From a bacterium (GTDB lineage: Bacteria > Babelota > Babeliae > Babelales > UASB340), in the NCBI GenBank assembly GCA_030629005.1, contig DAOVPV010000006.1, positions 3,472-67,471 of the forward strand: a stretch of 64,000 nt of DNA, written 5' to 3'. The translations under genes were made by a program, and so were the position numbers. The notes below the pieces were generated by a model, which saw only the letters and a list, made by a program, of their open reading frames with translations, had not been told where the DNA came from and did not search any database. Shown piece by piece: positions 2,733 to 56,900 of this stretch; the first letter of the stretch is position 1, and the number at the start of each line of letters is the position of its first letter.

Positions 2733-2808
2733 TGGTGGAGGTAAGCGGAGTCGAACCGCTGGCCTTCCGCTTGCAAAGCGGACGCTCTACCAACTGAGCT
2801 ATACCCCC
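2733..2808 (-). tRNA. tRNA-Ala (anticodon UGC), CCA encoded
   Basis: The reverse complement GGGGGTATAGCTCAGTTGGTAGAGCGTCCGCTTTGCAAGCGGAAGGCCAGCGGTTCGACTCCGCTTACCTCCACCA folds as a cloverleaf. The G3:U70 Ala identity pair is present and the anticodon loop is TTTGCAA. Confidence 0.95.
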
Positions 2809-2833
2809 GAAAATTTCAAGTGGCCGTGCCTTT

Positions 2834-2876
2834 TGCCCTACTTCGCTTTAAAAAGCTACGAAGGGCATACTTCGCG
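2834..2876 (-). repeat. GC-rich tRNA-linked repeat module R2
   Basis: TGCCCTACTTCGCTTTAAAAAGCTACGAAGGGCATACTTCGCG has a close copy at 13833-13871. It contains two TACTTCGC boxes. Confidence 0.7.
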
Positions 2877-2920
2877 TCCTTTCTATCAATATCAGGCTTA
2901 AAACTATCTCTTTTAAAAGA

Positions 2921-3015
2921 CTGGCTTGCCATACGACCTGTCCTACGAAGCCACGTAGGGCGTAGTAGGAAGCCTTTACGCCGTCGCTAAAGCTATGGCG
3001 CACATGGGCGAAGTA
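2921..3015 (-). repeat. GC-rich tRNA-trailer repeat module R1 plus CCA-adjacent box
   Basis: CTGGCTTGCCATACGACCTGTCCTACGAAGCCACGTAGGGCGTAGTAGGAAGCCTT is about 90% identical to 14129-14185. The segment ends in GGCGAAGTA directly against the tRNA-Ile 3' end. Confidence 0.75.
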
Positions 3016-3092
3016 TGGTGGGCCTAAGTAGACTCGAACTACTGACCTCTCCGTTATCAGCGGAGTGCTCTAGCCAACTGAGCTATAGGCCC
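3016..3092 (-). tRNA. tRNA-Ile (anticodon GAU), CCA encoded
   Basis: The reverse complement GGGCCTATAGCTCAGTTGGCTAGAGCACTCCGCTGATAACGGAGAGGTCAGTAGTTCGAGTCTACTTAGGCCCACCA folds as a cloverleaf. The anticodon loop is CTGATAA. Confidence 0.95.
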
Positions 3093-42997: not shown

Positions 42998-44275
42998 TTA
43001 AAAATTAAACGCTAATTGACCACCAACGGTATACGTCTTAATAACTCGTTTTCCAGACACCGGCAACTTTGTAAATAAACTTATTTGCGGCATCATTGCA
43101 TAATTACTTTTCTCTTTAAAGAAATCAAAATTTAACTGAAATATAAAATCTTGGGTATTCCATTCTTGTAAGCGCTCTGCCGAATTAATAATACTATAAT
43201 CAAACTTATTTGACTCTGCCGTAAACTTATCTGAATCATGTTTTAAATATTGATAAGCTATTTTGACTGTGACAAATTTTCCAAATTTCTTTTGCATAAA
43301 CAAATTAAATTTCCAAGAAATTCCTTGACTCAAAGTTGCTTTACCCTTATGCAATAATAAAAAATCAGTTTGATTGATATCTGTTTTTAACCTATAAGTA
43401 TCTGAAGTATCAAACACAAACAACAGGTCAAACTCAAGGCCAGCTTTAAACTCTCTAATAAAATGCAAATCTATTGCTGCACCAACAGGAACACCCCAAG
43501 CTCCATTATTACCCATAGGTAAGTCTAAAATCTTGTCTGAATTAATTCTATGTCCAGTAGGCGCGCTCAAGCCCAATCTAAAATTTAACCTAACATTTTT
43601 TAAATGATCTTTAATTTGTTTATAGTCATTATACCACCAAATTTGTGTGACAATGTCTGATATACCAAATCTTTCAAATCCATCAAGACTTAATCCATCA
43701 CCCAAAGTGTAGATGTTATTAAAAAAAGAATCGGTCAAGTTTTGATGCACATCCAAATCTGCAACCAAAACACTTTTTGTAAGATCTCGCCAAACAACAT
43801 TCTTAATTTCCATCTGACTAAACGGTACATGAACATATAAATCAAAATTACCCGGTATCGTTTTTATTGGTAATTTATACTTTGCAAGCAAATTTAAATT
43901 TGTCATCTCAAACTCACCATCAAGTTCAAAGTGACCACGGACACCATCATCTGTTGCAGGACTGTATGCAGGTAAAAATAAAGTCGCTTTTTCATAAATA
44001 GCACTGCCAGGATCCGCGCCCAGTAACATCGCTAAACTGGATTCAGTTGCATTATACAATCTTAGTAAACCAGATTTATTTTCCCACAAATTCCAACTAT
44101 CTTTTGTACTACCATGTTCTATATTTGCGCCAAACAAAAACTTTTTAGGTTCACAGTCTGGCAATCTCCAGTTTATATTATATGGTGTATAAAAATTTGT
44201 TGGTGCATATGCAAATACCAAATTAAAACTGCTTAGCCCAAGAAGTGCGGTAAAAATAAATTTAAAATTTTTCAT
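42998..44275 (-). CDS. putative outer-membrane beta-barrel protein
   Basis: The signal peptide ends ...NLVFA-YA. The sequence has an alternating amphipathic pattern and ends ...GGQLAFNF, with a terminal Phe as in OMPs. Confidence 0.65.
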   Translation of the reverse strand: MKNFKFIFTALLGLSSFNLVFAYAPTNFYTPYNINWRLPDCEPKKFLFGANIEHGSTKDSWNLWENKSGLLRLYNATESSLAMLLGADPGSAIYEKATLFLPAYSPATDDGVRGHFELDGEFEMTNLNLLAKYKLPIKTIPGNFDLYVHVPFSQMEIKNVVWRDLTKSVLVADLDVHQNLTDSFFNNIYTLGDGLSLDGFERFGISDIVTQIWWYNDYKQIKDHLKNVRLNFRLGLSAPTGHRINSDKILDLPMGNNGAWGVPVGAAIDLHFIREFKAGLEFDLLFVFDTSDTYRLKTDINQTDFLLLHKGKATLSQGISWKFNLFMQKKFGKFVTVKIAYQYLKHDSDKFTAESNKFDYSIINSAERLQEWNTQDFIFQLNFDFFKEKSNYAMMPQISLFTKLPVSGKRVIKTYTVGGQLAFNF

Positions 44276-44291
44276 TATAACTATCCTTTAT

Positions 44292-47213
44292 TTACTCACT
44301 AACTCTAATTCCCCAATCTCCAGGAATTACCCAACCTCCAGATGCTGTATTTAATGCCATTAATCCAATATTATGTGCACTACTTTCTAAATCTAAATTA
44401 ATATTACTTTCTGCTGTCCTTATAGAACTTTGATCAGAAATCATTCTTATTGATCGTAAAAATTGCGTTTTATCAAAATGTTTGGAAAGCATACTAAAAC
44501 CTAAAGCTCCATCTGTTACAAAATTAGATCTAAGCTCACCAATAGAATAAAAATAATCTGTTCCTGAATTTTCTTTTATTGCAGTAATTAAACCATTTTG
44601 AACATTAAATCTATACACTGTAGCCATATTTAACGAAAAATCTGTAGCCAACACATATAAATTACCATTTGTTGTGTAACCACCCTTTTGTACGTCCACA
44701 AAGCTTAAATGTGAAACCGGCTTGGAAAGAGCCGTACCTGAATTTAAATTAACCCTTGTCCAAACAGGAGTTTTATTTCCTGGAGCATCAATTATAATAT
44801 TAGAATAAAATAAACCATGAGTTGTCGCCACTAATAAACGAGTATCTCCGGCACCACCAGCATCTCTATGAAAAACAATCATATCTAATAAATAACCAGG
44901 AGGTGGTGTTATATCATCTTCCGCTAAAACAGCAGAAACCGGGTCATCAAATTTATTAGCAGCCATAACAAATCTATAAATTTTATCCAAAGTCATTACA
45001 TTACAAAAACCACCACTAATAAATATTTTTCTTATATTTGAAAAATCGCCGATTTCTTTAAATGTCCAACCTGCAACTGTAGCTAAATCAACCACCGCCT
45101 GATTTACTCGACCATCCCAACCGTTACCGTCGGCCTGACGTAATACAGCTAAACCATTATAACCACCAACAAAGATCCAACCTTTATTTTCTTCTTGAAT
45201 TCTAGAAACATCTGCGCAACAAATTGGACCAATGTCACTTAAAGCTTGACCACTCAAAATAAATGTATTCTGGCCACCGCCCGTTTTTTCGAATAAATTT
45301 GTTGGAGTGAATGCATTATTTCCATCAGCAGCACCACTTTGAATTAATGCTATTTTTTTATATCCAAGAGCAGCCATAAAGGACATCCTATCTGCCGCAG
45401 CGGTACGAGCAATACTTGGAGTATATTCATCAAAATTAAACATCTGGTGCACACCTGCATTAACTTGTATAAATTCATCTCTTAAAATTTCAGTTAATCC
45501 ATTACCCATCAAACCACTCAAAGCTTTACCTTTTCCCCATTGCGTAACTTTTGCTGTATTTATATTTGCACCATCATCAGTTAAATACCAATAATTTGCT
45601 CCGGAAATATCAAAACCAAAACCATAAACCTTATCAATATTTCCCATTACACGTTGCCACGGAGACCAAATTCTAATTTTGCCATTAGAACTAAAAATTG
45701 CAGTACTTTTAAATATTCCCGACTCATTTACAGCAATATTTCGCGTACCTTGTAATGCAACAAAAACAGTATCATTTACAATGTAAATATCAGAAACAAT
45801 ACCATCGTCAGGAATTGGCAAATCACCACCACCAACAATAGCAGCAGCATCTGTAGATAAAGTCATATCTGCATTAGAAGCCACAACGGCATCATAATTA
45901 TTTTTCTTTACAACTTTACCAACATTTTCAACAGGTGTCACAGTTGTACCATCACTCAATTTTGTGCCAAGAATTGGTAATGCATAAACTCTATTCTTTT
46001 TATCAGTCGCATCAAGCGAACTATCACTATTTACTATCAAATAATTTTTATTAGTACTTGTAACCATAGTTTTCAACTTAAAAGTATCACAATGAGCATC
46101 TGCGGCAGCACCCGCAGCCTTATAAAAAGCAAATATCTTTGTTGCATCATCAAGGCCTGGGTCAAAAATATTCTGCGATAAAATAACAACTGGCTCAATT
46201 TTTAATGCACCGGCATCGTCAAACCTACCAACTAAAATAGATATACCACCACCATCCAAAGTATTATTATCACGCTCGACACTTTTAAGACCAATAAATA
46301 ATCTTTTCAAAGTTGAGTCCCAATACATATCACCAAGATCAACAGTATTTTTTGCATTTTGAGTTATTGCAAAAAGAACACCTTGAGTTAAATCAAATTT
46401 AAAAGCCAAATTACCGGCCTTGTCACCGGTTTGAGCATTTATCGGCTTTAATTTGCTTTCTTCTTGAATTAAAACAGCAAATCCAGCATTGCCATCAACA
46501 AAATTATTTGCATTAGATTTTACTGCTGCAATAATTTTGTCTAAACTTGCAGCAAGACCAATAACACCAGCAGTTGTTTTAAGAGTTGCATCTGAATCAT
46601 TAATTTCTATAATATTAGTTTTTACAGAACTACCATCTGCCAAATCATCTATCAAACAAACACATTTACCTGCGCCAATAGGATTACCACCAAAACCACC
46701 GTCTACAGTAGTTGCATCACTTAAAGTCAAAATAGGATTCCTGACCTGCAACGTCAATTTATCAACACGCTTGTTATAAATAGGATTATTTTTTTTAACA
46801 GCTTTTTTATTTTCCTTGATGCCATTAAGATATGCAGTTATTGCTGCTAGTGGTAAAAATTCCAAACTATTAAGATCGGGTGAAGAACCTAAGTTTAATT
46901 TTATTCTTACAAGAGCTGAAGTTCCAGGTGTAGCCGAACTAGCTCCTAAATAAAAATAGTCAGCCGCAGCAAAAGCATTTGCAACAAAATCTACGGTACC
47001 AACAGCGGCTAAATATCTCGTAGCTTTTTCGTCACCATCTTGAACATTAATGTTTGTTAAAAATTTAACATTTTGAAATTCTTCCGGAGTTTCTATTTTT
47101 GAATCTTCGTTTTCTGAAAAAACAAAACTTGGAACTTTAGTAGAGATAGAAGATTTTATAAATATTGGAAAAAAAAGATATAGAACTAGTATTGAAAATA
47201 TTCTAAACTTCAT
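44292..47213 (-). CDS. large secreted/surface protein (973 aa), G/A/T/N/D-rich, possible beta-propeller
   Basis: It has a signal peptide and no TM helix. Motifs of the type GxxYxxT/GLFxS recur. No family recognised. Confidence 0.75.
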   Translation of the reverse strand: MKFRIFSILVLYLFFPIFIKSSISTKVPSFVFSENEDSKIETPEEFQNVKFLTNINVQDGDEKATRYLAAVGTVDFVANAFAAADYFYLGASSATPGTSALVRIKLNLGSSPDLNSLEFLPLAAITAYLNGIKENKKAVKKNNPIYNKRVDKLTLQVRNPILTLSDATTVDGGFGGNPIGAGKCVCLIDDLADGSSVKTNIIEINDSDATLKTTAGVIGLAASLDKIIAAVKSNANNFVDGNAGFAVLIQEESKLKPINAQTGDKAGNLAFKFDLTQGVLFAITQNAKNTVDLGDMYWDSTLKRLFIGLKSVERDNNTLDGGGISILVGRFDDAGALKIEPVVILSQNIFDPGLDDATKIFAFYKAAGAAADAHCDTFKLKTMVTSTNKNYLIVNSDSSLDATDKKNRVYALPILGTKLSDGTTVTPVENVGKVVKKNNYDAVVASNADMTLSTDAAAIVGGGDLPIPDDGIVSDIYIVNDTVFVALQGTRNIAVNESGIFKSTAIFSSNGKIRIWSPWQRVMGNIDKVYGFGFDISGANYWYLTDDGANINTAKVTQWGKGKALSGLMGNGLTEILRDEFIQVNAGVHQMFNFDEYTPSIARTAAADRMSFMAALGYKKIALIQSGAADGNNAFTPTNLFEKTGGGQNTFILSGQALSDIGPICCADVSRIQEENKGWIFVGGYNGLAVLRQADGNGWDGRVNQAVVDLATVAGWTFKEIGDFSNIRKIFISGGFCNVMTLDKIYRFVMAANKFDDPVSAVLAEDDITPPPGYLLDMIVFHRDAGGAGDTRLLVATTHGLFYSNIIIDAPGNKTPVWTRVNLNSGTALSKPVSHLSFVDVQKGGYTTNGNLYVLATDFSLNMATVYRFNVQNGLITAIKENSGTDYFYSIGELRSNFVTDGALGFSMLSKHFDKTQFLRSIRMISDQSSIRTAESNINLDLESSAHNIGLMALNTASGGWVIPGDWGIRVSE

Positions 47214-47363: not shown

Positions 47364-48314
47364 TTAAGGTTGAAAAACTTCTTTTTGAGCAAACAAATCA
47401 GATCTCTCCAAAATTTTATCTAATAGATCTAAAACCTCTTGAATTGTTGGACGATATTCAGGCCAATGCCCCCAACATTTGCTTATAATATTATTAATTG
47501 AAGCAAACTCAGGGTCAAGATAAGGACGAGCACCACGCAATATAGAATTCGTAAAAACATCCGGATCATCAATAAAATTTGCAGTAGTTTCATCATAAAA
47601 AATATAATGAATCAAATGACCTAATGCATAAATATCATCTGAAAAAGCCACTGTATATTCTGCCTTTTCCTGCCAAGCAATTATTTTTTCGGGTGGAAAA
47701 AAAACAAGAGTACCACAAATTCCTTCAGACCGCTCTCTAATATCACATGACATAGATAAATCAATTATTTTAGGAATATTACCATCAAACATAACAATAT
47801 TTTCGGGCTTCAAATCGCAATGAACAATATTGTTTTCATGCAAATATTTAACACCTAAACAAATTTTCTTTGTCATATCTAAGCGTTCTTTAAAGGACAA
47901 TATACCTTTATTTTGCGCTAAAAAATCAACTAAATCACATAAACCTTGAGAAGTTACTATTACAAAACTTTTAGGATCATATCCAATTAAATCAACAATA
48001 AATTCACATTCTGAAAACCGATGTAAAATATCTACTTCTTGAAAGAAAAATTGTGAATTTCTTTTTACTATTTCCTTCGATTTAGAAGGAATGCTCCTAT
48101 AAACCAAAAAAACTACTGGCTGCCCCTCCAATAAGCCCTTATAAACAATCTTTTCACTCCCACCAATAAAACGTTCATATTCCTTTGCAATTGTAGCTCT
48201 ATCTAAAACTGTAATAGAAAGCCCAGCATTCCTTTTTGTGGGCTGCATAGAAAAAAGATTTATAATAAAAAATAAAAATATTAAAAATATTTTAAAATTT
48301 TTAAATTTCAACAA
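47364..48314 (-). CDS. eukaryotic-like Ser/Thr protein kinase with N-terminal signal/anchor, WNK-like lysine placement
   Basis: The catalytic loop HCDLKPEN is intact, with DLS in place of DFG and PPE in place of APE. The G-loop reads IGGSEKIVYKG. The position expected for the beta3 VAIK lysine reads VVFL. Confidence 0.85.
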   Translation of the reverse strand: MLKFKNFKIFLIFLFFIINLFSMQPTKRNAGLSITVLDRATIAKEYERFIGGSEKIVYKGLLEGQPVVFLVYRSIPSKSKEIVKRNSQFFFQEVDILHRFSECEFIVDLIGYDPKSFVIVTSQGLCDLVDFLAQNKGILSFKERLDMTKKICLGVKYLHENNIVHCDLKPENIVMFDGNIPKIIDLSMSCDIRERSEGICGTLVFFPPEKIIAWQEKAEYTVAFSDDIYALGHLIHYIFYDETTANFIDDPDVFTNSILRGARPYLDPEFASINNIISKCWGHWPEYRPTIQEVLDLLDKILERSDLFAQKEVFQP

Positions 48315-53119: not shown

Positions 53120-53136
53120 ACTCCAATCAACACAAT

Positions 53137-53172
53137 AAAAAAGAGCCTGCAACAAACCGCAGGCTCTTTTTT
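53137..53172. terminator. bidirectional rho-independent terminator
   Basis: AAAAAAGAGCCTGC-AACAAACC-GCAGGCTCTTTTTT lies between convergent lon and the phospholipase gene. Confidence 0.85.
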
Positions 53173-53192
53173 AAGACCTAATTTATTAATGC

Positions 53193-56100
53193 CTAACTTG
53201 CAACTTGCGCTTGAAGCTGATCAATTTTTCGTTCTATAGCGCCTAATATCTTATCTTTATTTTCAACAACAGCATGTTCCATAACTCCACTAAGTAAATT
53301 AAATTGTTTTTTTGTATATTTAAACTTTGCTGTATGGCAAAATCCTTTCAATGATTTAGTTTCTTTTTCTGGATCAAATGTAGAACTAAAATTCGGATTT
53401 TTTAATAATGCAAAATAAATAATTGTAGGAACTTTTGAATCACTTAAATCCTCAAATATCAATACTGAATTTTGCTTAATTTTATCTTTAAGCTCAGCTT
53501 TAATTTCAACATCAGTTTTATCCTTTTCATTAACCACAAGCTCCGGAAACGCTAATCCATTTTCTCCAGCCCATTTTTTAACTTTTAATAACGATCGCGC
53601 ATAAGTACTAACCCTTCCATTCGCCTCATACAATATTATTATGCTTGAATCTCTTCTTACCAGAGGTGGAACAGGAAAATCTAAACCTTCACCTGCATCA
53701 ACCAATTTTATATTTTTTATATTTCTCAACGGACTCCCCTTTACCCCCAATACGGGATTTTTTATCTTTGCAGGCCATAACCGCTGCTTCTCAAACTTCG
53801 AAAAAGCCATAACTTTTTCAAGAAAACCTTTAACTTTTGCAGGAAGTTTTTTTAACAAGCCATTTATCATCGTTACAAATCTCAAAGCAAATGCAGATCC
53901 CCATATCCCCATAAAAAATCCAATTTTTTGTTCTGGTGCAAAATTTTTAGATTCACCATTTAAAAATTTCCTACCAAAAGACCAAGTTGGAACATAAAAA
54001 TCTTCAATATTTGCACCAATATAGAATGGTGTATATTCAAACCATAAAAACGGTGGGCCGGGGCTTATTGCTGTTAATATTGGCATAGGAACAAGCCCTT
54101 TTGACGTATTTTCAGCCAAGTCAGAAAGAAAAATGCCTTCTTTCTTATATTTTTTCGTTTGACCAAAAAATTTATTGCCTAAAATTCCACCATAAATGTC
54201 TATTAAGTTTGTATGTTCACCAAGCATATTTTTCATAAAAATATTAGAAATAATAGACATCATATCTACAGGTGTCTTAAAAATATTCTTTTTAACTTTA
54301 TCTGCTAAAAACTGCTTATACTCCTGAGCCGATTTTCCATAATAAACAAACGGAGCAAAGCACCAAGTCGATCCTGAAATTCCAGCAATGTAAGTTACTG
54401 CGTCCAAAATTCCAATTTTTTCTAATCCAGAAAGTATACCGGCACTTGATATCATAGCCCTAAATCCACCGCCACTATGAGCACAAGCTATAACTGGAAC
54501 AGCTTGGGGCTCTATATTTTTATTTAAAACTTTGGACAATGCTTCTGCTCCAACCTTCCTTCTCTTCACTAAAAAATCTTTTTCTTCTTTAGATAATTCG
54601 GAACCAAAAGAAACATGTGCGACCTTTTTTTTGTACGGCCCTCTAGCTAACTTTTCACTCACCTTCTTTTTAAGCTTATCAAAAAAATCAAGCCCTCCCA
54701 GATGTCGACGTCCTAACCAACCCAATTGATTATATCCACGTAAAATGGAATTTCTTTCTTCAATATAAAAATTATGTCCCCGACCGAGCCCAATACCAAT
54801 CTTTGTTGCATTCAAAGAATCTCTGCCGCTAATCATATCTTTTAGATCATCTTTTATATACGAAAAAAACAATTTTCTAAAATGCATCCCTTTCCATTTT
54901 AGCCGACTTATAGATTCAGCTTTTCCTGCATCTATCTTTATTACACCTCCAGCCCTTTTGGCCTTACCACCTTGATGATAATATGTTGCAACAAAAATAT
55001 CTTTGGGCGCCTCATTATAAACGATTAAGCCCTTACTAAAAGAATCTTCATCAAAAGCCTTATCCTTAGGCCTAACAACATCTTTTTTCTTAAGATAAGC
55101 CGTCGCAAAATCTTTATATTCTTTTTGCAATTTTAAATTAGGATTATCTATCATTCTTAATGAAATTCGATTTAACTCATTAACTAAATGCAGCGAATTA
55201 CCTTCATGAACTTGATCCAAATTTAAAAAATTCGGCATCTGACCTTTTAAAGAATCTGTTTCATCCAAACCTTTTGCCATAACTTGTTCAACAATTTTAA
55301 AAAGAATCTTACCGTTCACAACTCTATAATTTAAACCCCAATAAAGTTTTATATTCCTAAAAGCTTTTATTAACTCTGACAAACCCGCTCTAATGTGCCA
55401 CTTGGTCATATCTTTTATCGTTATTTTTTTTGTAGCTTCCAAAATATATTTTTGAGCATTTTCTAAAAGAGCTCCTGGAAATAAATTAATTGCGCCTAAA
55501 TATTTAAAATTATTTAATCGATTCCGTTTCTCTATCAAACCTTGAAATTTTTTGGCCAGATCTCCAAGTAATTTTTCACCAACCGAAACTAACATTCTTT
55601 TATTTAGATCTCTTATTTCTTTGTTTAAATCGGCAATCTTTTTATCAAACATTTTTACTGAATCTGATCGCTCTTTTAATGCACCCTCCACCGTAGAAGT
55701 AACTCCATATAAATTAGAACGTTGAATTTCCCACTGATTATAAACATATTTAGATGGACCGTTGTTAGCCCAAAAAACAACTCGCTTATTATTTTTTAAC
55801 ATCCAGTCTAAAGTTGGCCACTTACCTTCTTTTTCTAAAATATCCCAATCTTCCGGCCTCAATGTAATCGCATCAATCCCAGAATCTCTTATAACCTTAT
55901 CTGTTGTTTCCATATCTATATAATTTTCTAACTCTATACAAAGAACTTCATCTCTATTTTCAAATAAAAGGGTTTTTAAAATTTCTAATGATTCTTTCAA
56001 GGTCATTGTCACATAATCAGTCCTTTTTTGTCGCTTAACAGCAATTAAAGCTTTTACCAAATTTACATAATTAAGTTTTCCCTGCAACCTTAATACTGGA

Positions 56101-56900
56101 CCCAATTTACAATCACCATGACAAAGCCTTGCCTCCACAGGACGACTTGATTTTTTTATATCAATATTTGTTCCCGGCTTTGTTGGATAACAATCAAGAA
56201 GAAAACATCGAACACCCATATTAAATTGTTTTATTATGTCATAGTATTGTTGATAATAAAAACGATAACCATCTTGAAAACATGAAAAAGAATTGTGAGA
56301 GGCTAACAAACAAACTTGATCTAACCTTAGCCTTCTGTTTGGTATAATCCATTTCTCCAAATCAATTTTAATATTTTCTCGCTTAAAAGAACTTTTAAAC
56401 AATGAATGCAATAGAATTTTAAAATGCCTTAACTTTGTATCTGCACCAAATTTTTCTAAATATTCTTCTCTTAACTTACCGTCACGCACGACCCTCCGAC
56501 CTAACAAATGTTTTTTATCCAAACGCTTATCTATTTCAACTTTACTATCTCGAAACATCTTAAAATAAACATCTGTTGTTTTATTATTTTCTATTCGAAT
56601 ATTGGGAGACCAGAGAGCAATATCAACAGGCTTATAATCTCTCTCTCTAAAAATAGAAACAACCATGTCCCTAACATCTGCAGAGCCTGAACCATGTTTT
56701 CCAGAGCGATAAGCTTTGCTCTTCTCTTCAGGTCTTAAAAAAACATGTCTCCAATTTGTCTTTCCAGACAAACGATATTCAACATCCAAATAATAAGGTG
56801 ATAAATTATGAAAACGAGTTTTACCAATATCAGAAAAAAGACTCGAACTAAAAAATAACATCCATCCAAAAAATAAATTTATAAATTTATTCATATTCAC
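53193..56900 (-). CDS. secreted multidomain phospholipase: PI-PLC-X-like domain plus cPLA2/phospholipase B-like domain
   Basis: A signal peptide is followed by LLASHNSFSC...GVRCFLLDCY...CHGDC, which is PLC-like phosphodiesterase. Later come HSGGGFRAM, GISGSTW and DAGEGLDFPVPPL, matching the cPLA2-type oxyanion hole, nucleophile elbow and catalytic Asp. Confidence 0.8.
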   Translation of the reverse strand: MNMNKFINLFFGWMLFFSSSLFSDIGKTRFHNLSPYYLDVEYRLSGKTNWRHVFLRPEEKSKAYRSGKHGSGSADVRDMVVSIFRERDYKPVDIALWSPNIRIENNKTTDVYFKMFRDSKVEIDKRLDKKHLLGRRVVRDGKLREEYLEKFGADTKLRHFKILLHSLFKSSFKRENIKIDLEKWIIPNRRLRLDQVCLLASHNSFSCFQDGYRFYYQQYYDIIKQFNMGVRCFLLDCYPTKPGTNIDIKKSSRPVEARLCHGDCKLGPVLRLQGKLNYVNLVKALIAVKRQKRTDYVTMTLKESLEILKTLLFENRDEVLCIELENYIDMETTDKVIRDSGIDAITLRPEDWDILEKEGKWPTLDWMLKNNKRVVFWANNGPSKYVYNQWEIQRSNLYGVTSTVEGALKERSDSVKMFDKKIADLNKEIRDLNKRMLVSVGEKLLGDLAKKFQGLIEKRNRLNNFKYLGAINLFPGALLENAQKYILEATKKITIKDMTKWHIRAGLSELIKAFRNIKLYWGLNYRVVNGKILFKIVEQVMAKGLDETDSLKGQMPNFLNLDQVHEGNSLHLVNELNRISLRMIDNPNLKLQKEYKDFATAYLKKKDVVRPKDKAFDEDSFSKGLIVYNEAPKDIFVATYYHQGGKAKRAGGVIKIDAGKAESISRLKWKGMHFRKLFFSYIKDDLKDMISGRDSLNATKIGIGLGRGHNFYIEERNSILRGYNQLGWLGRRHLGGLDFFDKLKKKVSEKLARGPYKKKVAHVSFGSELSKEEKDFLVKRRKVGAEALSKVLNKNIEPQAVPVIACAHSGGGFRAMISSAGILSGLEKIGILDAVTYIAGISGSTWCFAPFVYYGKSAQEYKQFLADKVKKNIFKTPVDMMSIISNIFMKNMLGEHTNLIDIYGGILGNKFFGQTKKYKKEGIFLSDLAENTSKGLVPMPILTAISPGPPFLWFEYTPFYIGANIEDFYVPTWSFGRKFLNGESKNFAPEQKIGFFMGIWGSAFALRFVTMINGLLKKLPAKVKGFLEKVMAFSKFEKQRLWPAKIKNPVLGVKGSPLRNIKNIKLVDAGEGLDFPVPPLVRRDSSIIILYEANGRVSTYARSLLKVKKWAGENGLAFPELVVNEKDKTDVEIKAELKDKIKQNSVLIFEDLSDSKVPTIIYFALLKNPNFSSTFDPEKETKSLKGFCHTAKFKYTKKQFNLLSGVMEHAVVENKDKILGAIERKIDQLQAQVAS

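Follow-up and report, generated by a model that had tools for sequence, protein, structure and literature searches.

The stretch analysed here, 64,000 nucleotides of contig DAOVPV010000006.1 (hereafter the window), carries on its minus strand a single gene that joins a predicted phospholipase C (PLC)-like phosphodiesterase module to a catalytic domain of the cytosolic phospholipase A2 (cPLA2) type. A comparison with related loci, where the corresponding genes are adjacent and separate, demonstrates that the fusion arose by an in-frame deletion between neighbouring genes of the same orientation. The reading frame of 1235 residues is real, as are the motifs that an initial sequence-only reading of this DNA had quoted from it: ASHNSF (residues 200-205), GVRCFLLDCY (229-238) and CHGDC (260-264) in the N-terminal half, and HSGGGFRAM (808-816), GISGSTW (840-846) and DAGEGLDFPVPP (1068-1079) in the C-terminal half. 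The features of the gene, in window coordinates, are the following.

53193-56900 (stop codon included), minus strand: whole open reading frame, 1235 residues from a GTG codon, from the list of open reading frames.
56832-56900, minus strand: residues 1-23, N-terminus resembling a Sec-type signal peptide (MNMNK, a hydrophobic run, and SSSLFS followed by D), from a hydropathy scan.
56517-56831, minus strand: residues 24-128, beta-rich accessory domain of type A12, all-beta in the AlphaFold2 (AF2) model, with a predicted local distance difference test (pLDDT) of about 60-80.
56346-56516, minus strand: residues 129-185, conserved linker (KRLDKK...FKR.N.KIDLEKW), from alignments, with low model confidence.
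55125-56345, minus strand: residues 186-592, putative PLC-like phosphodiesterase module, from indirect profiles and residue conservation.
56295-56297 and 56118-56120, minus strand: candidate catalytic residues His202 and His261, respectively, from alignment to phosphatidylinositol-specific phospholipase C (PI-PLC).
Within the same module: other candidate catalytic residues Asn203, Arg231, Asp236, Glu325, Lys372/Arg373 and Asp562, from family conservation.
55506-55688, minus strand: residues ~405-465, variable coiled-coil insertion in the PLC-like module, two long helices in the AF2 model.
54699-55040, minus strand: residues 621-734, beta-rich "mid" domain of type A13, AF2 pLDDT >90.
53196-54698, minus strand: residues 735-1235, linker helices and cPLA2-type (PLA2_B) catalytic domain, from Pfam, PDB, alignment, AF2 and Foldseek.
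54459-54461, minus strand: Arg814, cPLA2-type key residue.
54375-54377, minus strand: Ser842, cPLA2-type nucleophile.
53697-53699, minus strand: Asp1068, cPLA2-type catalytic aspartate.
53136-53173, minus strand: terminator-like hairpin of 17 pairs with a T-run, 20 nt past the stop codon, between the fusion gene and the convergent lon gene.

Chance does not explain this reading frame, whose homologues are found at E values from 0 to 1e-200 and whose stop codon is closely followed by the hairpin. Regarding the start, an alternative ATG at 56894, two codons downstream of the GTG, gives a product of 1233 residues; it is used in public gene calls (P0001, 100% identity) and is likely the true start of the gene.

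Domains of the encoded protein

The C-terminal half represents a genuine cPLA2-type domain with its key residues intact, related to patatins at the superfamily level only. The PLA2_B family (PF01735) matches residues 804-1086 with 88.5 bits against a cut-off of 23 (E=4.5e-25), whereas the patatin family (PF01734) stays below threshold, with 15.2 bits against a cut-off of 27.7. In a sequence search of the PDB, the sole real matches are human cPLA2-alpha (PDB code: 1CJY, E=2.1e-32) and cPLA2-delta (E=2.5e-24), and in the alignment with cPLA2-alpha the SGGGFRAM and GxSGSTW motifs and the aspartate of DxG all line up, so that Arg814, Ser842 and Asp1068 correspond to Arg200, Ser228 and Asp549 of 1CJY. 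These three residues are also invariant in an alignment of 54 bacterial and vertebrate homologues. Moreover, the AF2 model of residues 600-1235 (mean pLDDT 89.5, predicted template modelling score 0.82) retrieves by Foldseek the cPLA2 structures 1cjy (E=6.8e-31) and 5iz5 (E=4e-30) from the PDB, whereas patatin-like proteins (CapE, CapV, VipD, PlpD, patatin and ExoU) appear only from E=1.4e-4 upward. Since the PF01735 match and the sequence and fold matches to cPLA2 far exceed those to patatin, the half is neither an ordinary patatin nor an alpha/beta hydrolase, in agreement with the sequence-only reading, which had described it as similar to cPLA2 and phospholipase B. No match to the C2 domain (PF00168) is present in the fusion protein, and a scan with the NCBIfam profiles gave no meaningful match. 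Phospholipase A2, phospholipase A1 or lysophospholipase activity is predicted for this half.

On the other hand, the assignment of the N-terminal half is based on indirect profile evidence, which places it in the PLC-like phosphodiesterase superfamily. Its close family consists of six proteins, and the only named one belongs to a Dependentiae bacterium. When the core of this family was trimmed (A4) and used as a profile in an exhaustive search that covered 1.84 billion representatives, 882 relatives were retrieved with E<=1e-3, 203 of them with E<=1e-10. From this search, the query and the top hits were combined into an alignment of 62 members, 14 of which match PF00388 (best 5.3e-8), while four match PF16670 (Ca2+-dependent PI-PLC) and two the MTC6 TIM-barrel family. 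The profile of these 62 sequences finds in the PDB only bacterial PI-PLC, being 1t6m (1.9e-5), 2plc (3.5e-5), 1ptd (5.6e-4) and 3ea1 (1e-3); profiles of the N-terminal half built from three and six sequences matched no solved structure. The histidines of the HN and CHG motifs, His202 and His261, align to the catalytic His32 and His82 of PI-PLC (THDS and HHG motifs) and occur in 59 and 58 of the 62 rows, respectively. Also, the query keeps all the near-invariant positions of the family: the two histidines, Asn203, Gly229, Arg231, Asp236, Glu325, Trp361, Pro362, Lys372, Arg373, Pro556, Asn557 and Asp562. In the alignment with 1t6m, the family aspartate (Asp236) falls on residue 69, which we take to be an arginine in the wild-type Bacillus enzymes and an aspartate in metal-dependent PLCs, and the stretch GVRCFLLDC resembles the eukaryotic X-box sequence GCRCVELDC. 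The coiled-coil insertion is missing from P0005 and P0006 and shorter in P0003.

Precomputed annotations assign PF26178 (Rv2075c_cat) and PF26146 (PI-PLC_X) to the fusion protein and to all five homologues, the matches being graded "weak" for the fusion protein. The local copy of Pfam did not return these two families even at E<=10; evidently, the Pfam releases differ between the local copy and the precomputed annotations. A separate observation concerns P0003 (MBD3272771.1, Candidatus Dependentiae bacterium), where a lysine- and glutamate-rich segment of low complexity precedes the PLC-like module and pentapeptide repeats follow it, with no PLA2 domain. Here the PLC-like module was joined to another C-terminal partner, independently of the fusion in the window.

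The two beta-rich domains are orphans, since neither has a sequence match in Pfam or the PDB. The A12 domain is conserved in the PLC-like proteins and also heads the separate PLA2 genes of close relatives; its motifs APDVKD.WV and NI.I.N.K.T are found in P0002, P0003 and P0007-P0009 (loci L001, L002 and L082), and P0002 and P0003 each have it duplicated in tandem. It has the appearance of a mobile targeting module specific to this clade. The A13 domain lies N-terminal to the catalytic domain in most of the cPLA2-like proteins examined from Dependentiae and is conserved in at least 19 homologues. In the cPLA2 enzymes of groups IVA, B, D, E and F, an N-terminal C2 domain provides Ca2+-dependent membrane targeting. 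A divergent C2 was considered for A13 and rejected, the comparison with cPLA2 C2 domains by hhalign giving a probability of 0.2%. A relationship between the two orphan domains, which had been suspected for segments 25-130 and 620-720 from their appearance, was not confirmed, as no similarity is detected by BLASTP and the hhalign comparison of their family profiles gives a probability of 2.8%. Both models weakly pick the same beta-sandwich structure in Foldseek (PDB code: 4jde) with non-significant E values, and a common fold is not supported.

At the N-terminus, a lysine precedes a hydrophobic run (residues ~6-22), which leads into the SSSLFS segment. No further hydrophobic segment is found by the hydropathy scan elsewhere in the protein, and equivalent N-termini are present in the aligned homologues P0002-P0005. 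Such an N-terminus appears compatible with Sec export.

Origin of the fusion by in-frame deletion

In two relatives, the halves are encoded by adjacent genes. In L001 (a Logan contig), a PfkB gene is followed by a PLC-like gene of 593 residues that ends 11 nt before a PLA2_B gene of 752 residues. In L002 (TM6 bacterium UASB340, LDIX01000003.1), the order is PfkB, a PLC-like gene of 586 residues, a gap of 17 nt, a PLA2_B gene of 765 residues, Lon, LolD and MurJ, and this is the gene order of the window. The identity of the fusion protein to the L001 products is 60% for the N-terminal and 62% for the C-terminal half, and to those of L002, 47% and 40%. The term fusion, used in the sequence-only reading, is thus literally correct. 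The separate PLA2 proteins have a signal peptide of their own, followed by a beta domain of the A12 type, and the fusion lacks both. The point of joining is the following.

55041-55124, minus strand: fusion junction, residues 593-620 (KEYKDFATAYLKKKDVVRPKDKAFDEDS), from protein and DNA alignment to L001.

At this point, the protein reads ...NPNLKLQ, four residues before the end of the separate PLC-like protein P0004 is reached, continues with 15 residues and then enters a segment that aligns just before the mid domain of P0007. In the comparison with L001, the alignment of the N-terminal half stops at residue 592 (L001 position 1949) and that of the C-terminal half resumes at residue 608 (L001 position 2342), 393 nt further on. 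From this break, about 348 nt, or about 116 codons, are absent from the fusion gene. The frame is kept, and what was lost is the stop codon of the first gene, the short intergenic gap and the beginning of the second gene, with its signal peptide and first beta domain. Because the split arrangement is also present in the more distant UASB340, by parsimony it is ancestral and the fusion is derived. The fusion therefore arose by an in-frame deletion between adjacent, co-oriented genes. At the junction, no internal terminator and no promoter signal above chance were found.

A further arrangement is seen at locus L082 (sample SRR12463116), where the slot between PfkB and Lon holds the PLC-like gene alone and no remnant of a PLA2 gene was found. 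A PLA2 gene with 59% identity lies on L083, another contig of the same sample that is not tied to the genome of L082. On this contig (2544-6118), two DUF2608 genes come after the stand-alone PLA2 gene and an ankyrin-repeat gene lies farther on, so that the neighbourhood may be rich in effectors.

Distribution of the cPLA2-type domain and genomic setting

In a word-indexed search with the C-terminal half, at least 42 bacterial homologues outrank any eukaryotic sequence, the named ones being from Dependentiae or Babeliales; vertebrate cPLA2 zeta and alpha come next, with E values of ~1e-35. When one genome of each GTDB species was scanned with a pattern seeded by 10 sequences, 117 matches were confirmed, with about 60 full-length loci that are mostly titled TM6, Dependentiae or Babeliales. 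Some genomes carry two full-length copies, and the identity descends to 22-25%; in other phyla, the scan gave short partial matches only. These ~60 full-length copies, mostly from Dependentiae and Babeliales, make the cPLA2 domain a trait of the lineage. The sequence-only reading had called this fold overwhelmingly eukaryotic, a statement that fails in this phylum. It had also proposed a search for the same architecture in other genomes: among all the fetched loci, the PLC-like gene is adjacent in UASB340 (L002) and L001 only, and none is fused, which makes this genome the only one so far with the fusion.

Some matches have unexpected titles. L064 (JBLICC010000002.1), a metagenome-assembled genome titled Alteromonas naphthalenivorans, contains a full-length cPLA2-type match (27% identity, E=1e-36), and bins named "uncultured Pseudomonadota bacterium" contribute many others. 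These cases may reflect mis-binned or mislabelled sequences, or a real occurrence beyond Dependentiae.

The fusion gene is flanked by a divergent PfkB kinase gene on one side and the convergent lon on the other. The G+C content is ~30% across the whole window, and the region of the fusion gene does not differ from the rest. The window also encodes BamA/Omp85, MurJ, LolD, a PilN-like protein and ribosomal protein S1, a set that indicates a bacterium with two membranes. Its assignment to Dependentiae (TM6, or Babelota) follows from the homologues and the gene order. Within the 64-kb window, each phospholipase half is found only once.

Several other features of the window were noted. A Ser/Thr protein kinase gene of eukaryotic type (Pkinase, E=4e-26; 47364-48314, minus strand) adjoins murJ, and a kinase gene occupies the same position in L082 (12557-13040). 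Two large reading frames of 973 and 425 residues without Pfam match lie at 42998-47213 on the minus strand, and TM6 bacterium UASB340 has a protein of 963 residues, also without matches, in a similar place after murJ (L002, 15232-18123). At 2733-3092 (minus strand), tRNA-Ala(TGC) and tRNA-Ile(GAT) genes stand 200 nt apart. Such a pair is usual in the spacer between 16S and 23S genes, but no rRNA gene was detected throughout the 64 kb, which suggests an unlinked or dispersed rRNA operon. Finally, the GC skew is negative nearly throughout positions 1-64000 (cumulative value -5.9), and the minus strand carries most genes from ~10.6 kb to 50.6 kb, which is consistent with a window placed within one replichore.

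Predicted function and comparison with known systems

Based on this architecture, we consider it probable that the gene encodes one exported polypeptide with two phospholipid-cleaving domains, fused in a Dependentiae lineage and acting on host membranes. The chain would consist of a signal peptide, an orphan beta domain, the PLC-like module (His202/His261), the second orphan beta domain and the cPLA2-type acyl hydrolase (Arg814 and the Ser842-Asp1068 dyad). Once exported by Sec, it would arrive at the membranes of the host protist that harbours the replicating bacterium, where the PLC-like half would hydrolyse the bond between glycerol and phosphate, with inositol-type lipids or anchors as the most likely substrates, and the cPLA2 half would strip acyl chains, by phospholipase A2, phospholipase A1 or lysophospholipase activity. 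With a single chain, both activities would be produced in equal amounts and delivered together, and the outcome would be membrane breakdown for lysis of the vacuole or the host cell, lipid scavenging, or both, these roles being plausible and not mutually exclusive. The cultured Dependentiae are obligate intracellular associates of protists, some of these bacteria lyse their host, and many of their proteins carry signal peptides (PMC6561590).

Several points weigh against this proposal. The direct match of the N-terminal half to PI-PLC-X (PF00388) is below threshold, with 16.7-18.9 bits against a cut-off of 23.1, and the same weak match (profile positions 28-106) recurs in three family members. 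The AF2 model of this half, built from six sequences, reaches a pLDDT of 52, and Foldseek gives no significant fold match for it. Moreover, Leu234 lies at what we take, from a comparison of motifs, to be the position of the Ca2+ ligand Glu341 of PLC-delta1, and this makes the metal chemistry of the PLC-like half uncertain. Regarding export, the signal peptide is predicted from hydropathy only, and in a bacterium with two membranes, as the BamA gene of the window indicates, a Sec signal peptide leads only to the periplasm. Also, what is observed is the identity of each domain, the preservation of the catalytic residues, the separate genes of the relatives and the deletion, and it is from these that we infer phospholipid hydrolysis, the localisation of the protein and its host target.

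Among the alternatives, the one that fares best, and which we still regard as unlikely, is that the main role is nutritional, the protein releasing fatty acids, lysolipids or diacylglycerol from host lipids to supply a bacterium unable to make them, and not rupturing membranes to escape or to lyse the cell. C. destructans, which belongs to the phylum and has been cultured, shows no evidence of lipid biosynthesis and is proposed to use the lipids of its host (PMC6561590). The presence of cPLA2-type genes in ~60 genomes, mostly of TM6, Dependentiae and Babeliales, and in two copies in some of them, would also fit a core physiological need. However, scavenging and lysis cannot be told apart by sequence, and the two roles are compatible.

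More doubtful is the possibility that the cPLA2 half is the only lipase and that the PLC-like half is a phosphodiesterase of GPI anchors or glycerophosphodiesters, a periplasmic enzyme of the bacterium's own envelope, or a binding module. The sub-threshold PI-PLC-X match, the leucine at the place of one expected metal ligand and the best precomputed family, which is Rv2075c_cat, would agree with such a role, as would the occurrence of the module alone or fused to pentapeptide repeats (P0002 and P0003). Nonetheless, all the near-invariant residues of the wider family are kept, both histidines included, the sole structural relatives found by sequence profile are the lipid-cleaving PI-PLCs, and the adjacency to a phospholipase gene, followed by fusion with it, suggests a common class of substrate. 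The sequence-only reading, which had called this half PI-PLC-X-like, is sustained by the profiles of the relatives and the conserved pair of histidines, whereas the direct match is weaker than it implied.

It is very improbable that the fusion is an artefact, in which a mis-assembly or collapse dropped ~350 nt from an organism that really has two genes. The window comes from a metagenome scaffold, and the relatives examined that have both genes keep them separate. However, the loss preserves the frame and coincides precisely with the stop codon, the gap, the second signal peptide and a single domain. Furthermore, the identical product of 1233 residues is recorded on two contigs of different length, from three sources, one of the records being a metagenome scaffold of 96 kb (ZHAN22-2_SAMN18200505 scaffold_62). 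No repeat prone to collapse was seen at the junction by reading the sequence, and no repeat search was made. Least credible of all is a recent one-off gain of the cPLA2 domain by this genome from its eukaryotic host: PF01735 is mainly a eukaryotic family and the best matches outside the bacterial group are the vertebrate cPLA2 enzymes, but the higher rank of the bacterial homologues, their spread and divergence across the species genomes, the G+C content around the gene and its conserved order with other bacterial genes imply that any transfer would be ancient and could have run in either direction.

A broader hypothesis, which we advance with considerable reserve, is that Dependentiae possess an old and diversified family of exported cPLA2-type enzymes, in which a hitherto undescribed beta domain replaces C2 for membrane targeting, and that in this genome one of them was welded to a PLC-like module as an effector that attacks two bonds of protist membranes. 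If true, a deep bacterial clade would make it a testable question where the cPLA2 fold originated and in which direction it passed between protist and parasite.

The locus is of interest in several respects. A true cPLA2-type domain with intact catalytic residues is widespread in a phylum of obligate parasites of protists that, where studied, seemingly do not synthesise their own lipids. Moreover, the locus captures a gene fusion in progress, as relatives have adjacent, unlinked or PLC-like-only genes and here the two are fused. This series from split to fused offers natural genetic evidence for cooperation between the PLC-like and PLA2 activities, and the split and fused pair would be a tractable system to study how intracellular bacteria dismantle or harvest host membranes. 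Also, the two orphan beta domains are candidates for new membrane-targeting modules. Among the papers retrieved by literature searches on Dependentiae, TM6, Babela and Chromulinavorax, none deals in its title or abstract with these phospholipase or cPLA2 enzymes, and the mentions seen in full texts are in unrelated contexts.

Enzymes of the cPLA2 type are usually seen as eukaryotic signalling lipases. Group IV cPLA2 (PDB codes: 1CJY and 5IZ5) and fungal phospholipase B share with the C-terminal half the catalytic fold, the arginine of SGGGxRAM, GxSGS and DxG. However, the fusion protein is bacterial, has a signal-peptide-like start and a fused PLC-like module, carries an orphan beta domain in the position of C2, and is only ~20-30% identical to them. 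Closer are the stand-alone cPLA2-like proteins of Dependentiae and Babeliales (P0007-P0048), which share the mid and catalytic domains with 27-65% identity, one of them (P0009, TM6 bacterium UASB340) being encoded at the same chromosomal position as the fusion gene. These, in contrast, are products of separate genes with their own signal peptide, and the closest ones have an extra N-terminal beta domain; none of those retrieved by the searches is joined to a PLC-like module.

For the N-terminal half, the bacterial PI-PLC enzymes of Bacillus cereus and B. thuringiensis (PDB codes: 1PTD and 1T6M), Listeria (PlcA, 2PLC) and S. aureus (3EA1) are matched by profile, with both catalytic histidines aligned. 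Nonetheless, the fusion protein is very distant from them, with Asp236 at the position of Arg69 and a coiled-coil insertion. The weak precomputed assignment to PF26178 and PF26146 points to exported proteins of the M. tuberculosis Rv2075c type, for which a literature search found no paper with Rv2075c in its title or abstract. In Listeria, PlcA and PlcB provide a case where two phospholipases of different bond specificity are used together.

Patatin effectors such as VipD of Legionella, ExoU of Pseudomonas, and PlpD, a class used against host membranes, belong to the same superfamily of Ser-Asp dyad enzymes, with fold matches from E=1e-4 to 1e-2. To our knowledge, the effectors characterised to date from bacteria, such as ExoU, VipD and the Rickettsia Pat proteins, belong to the patatins. 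The fusion protein differs from the patatin effectors in that its export would apparently be by Sec and not by type III or type IV secretion signals, and in that two predicted activities reside on one chain. Thus, each half corresponds to a known superfamily, whereas the combination, the origin of the fusion, the orphan domain in the place of C2 and a bacterial cPLA2 that extends across a phylum are new.

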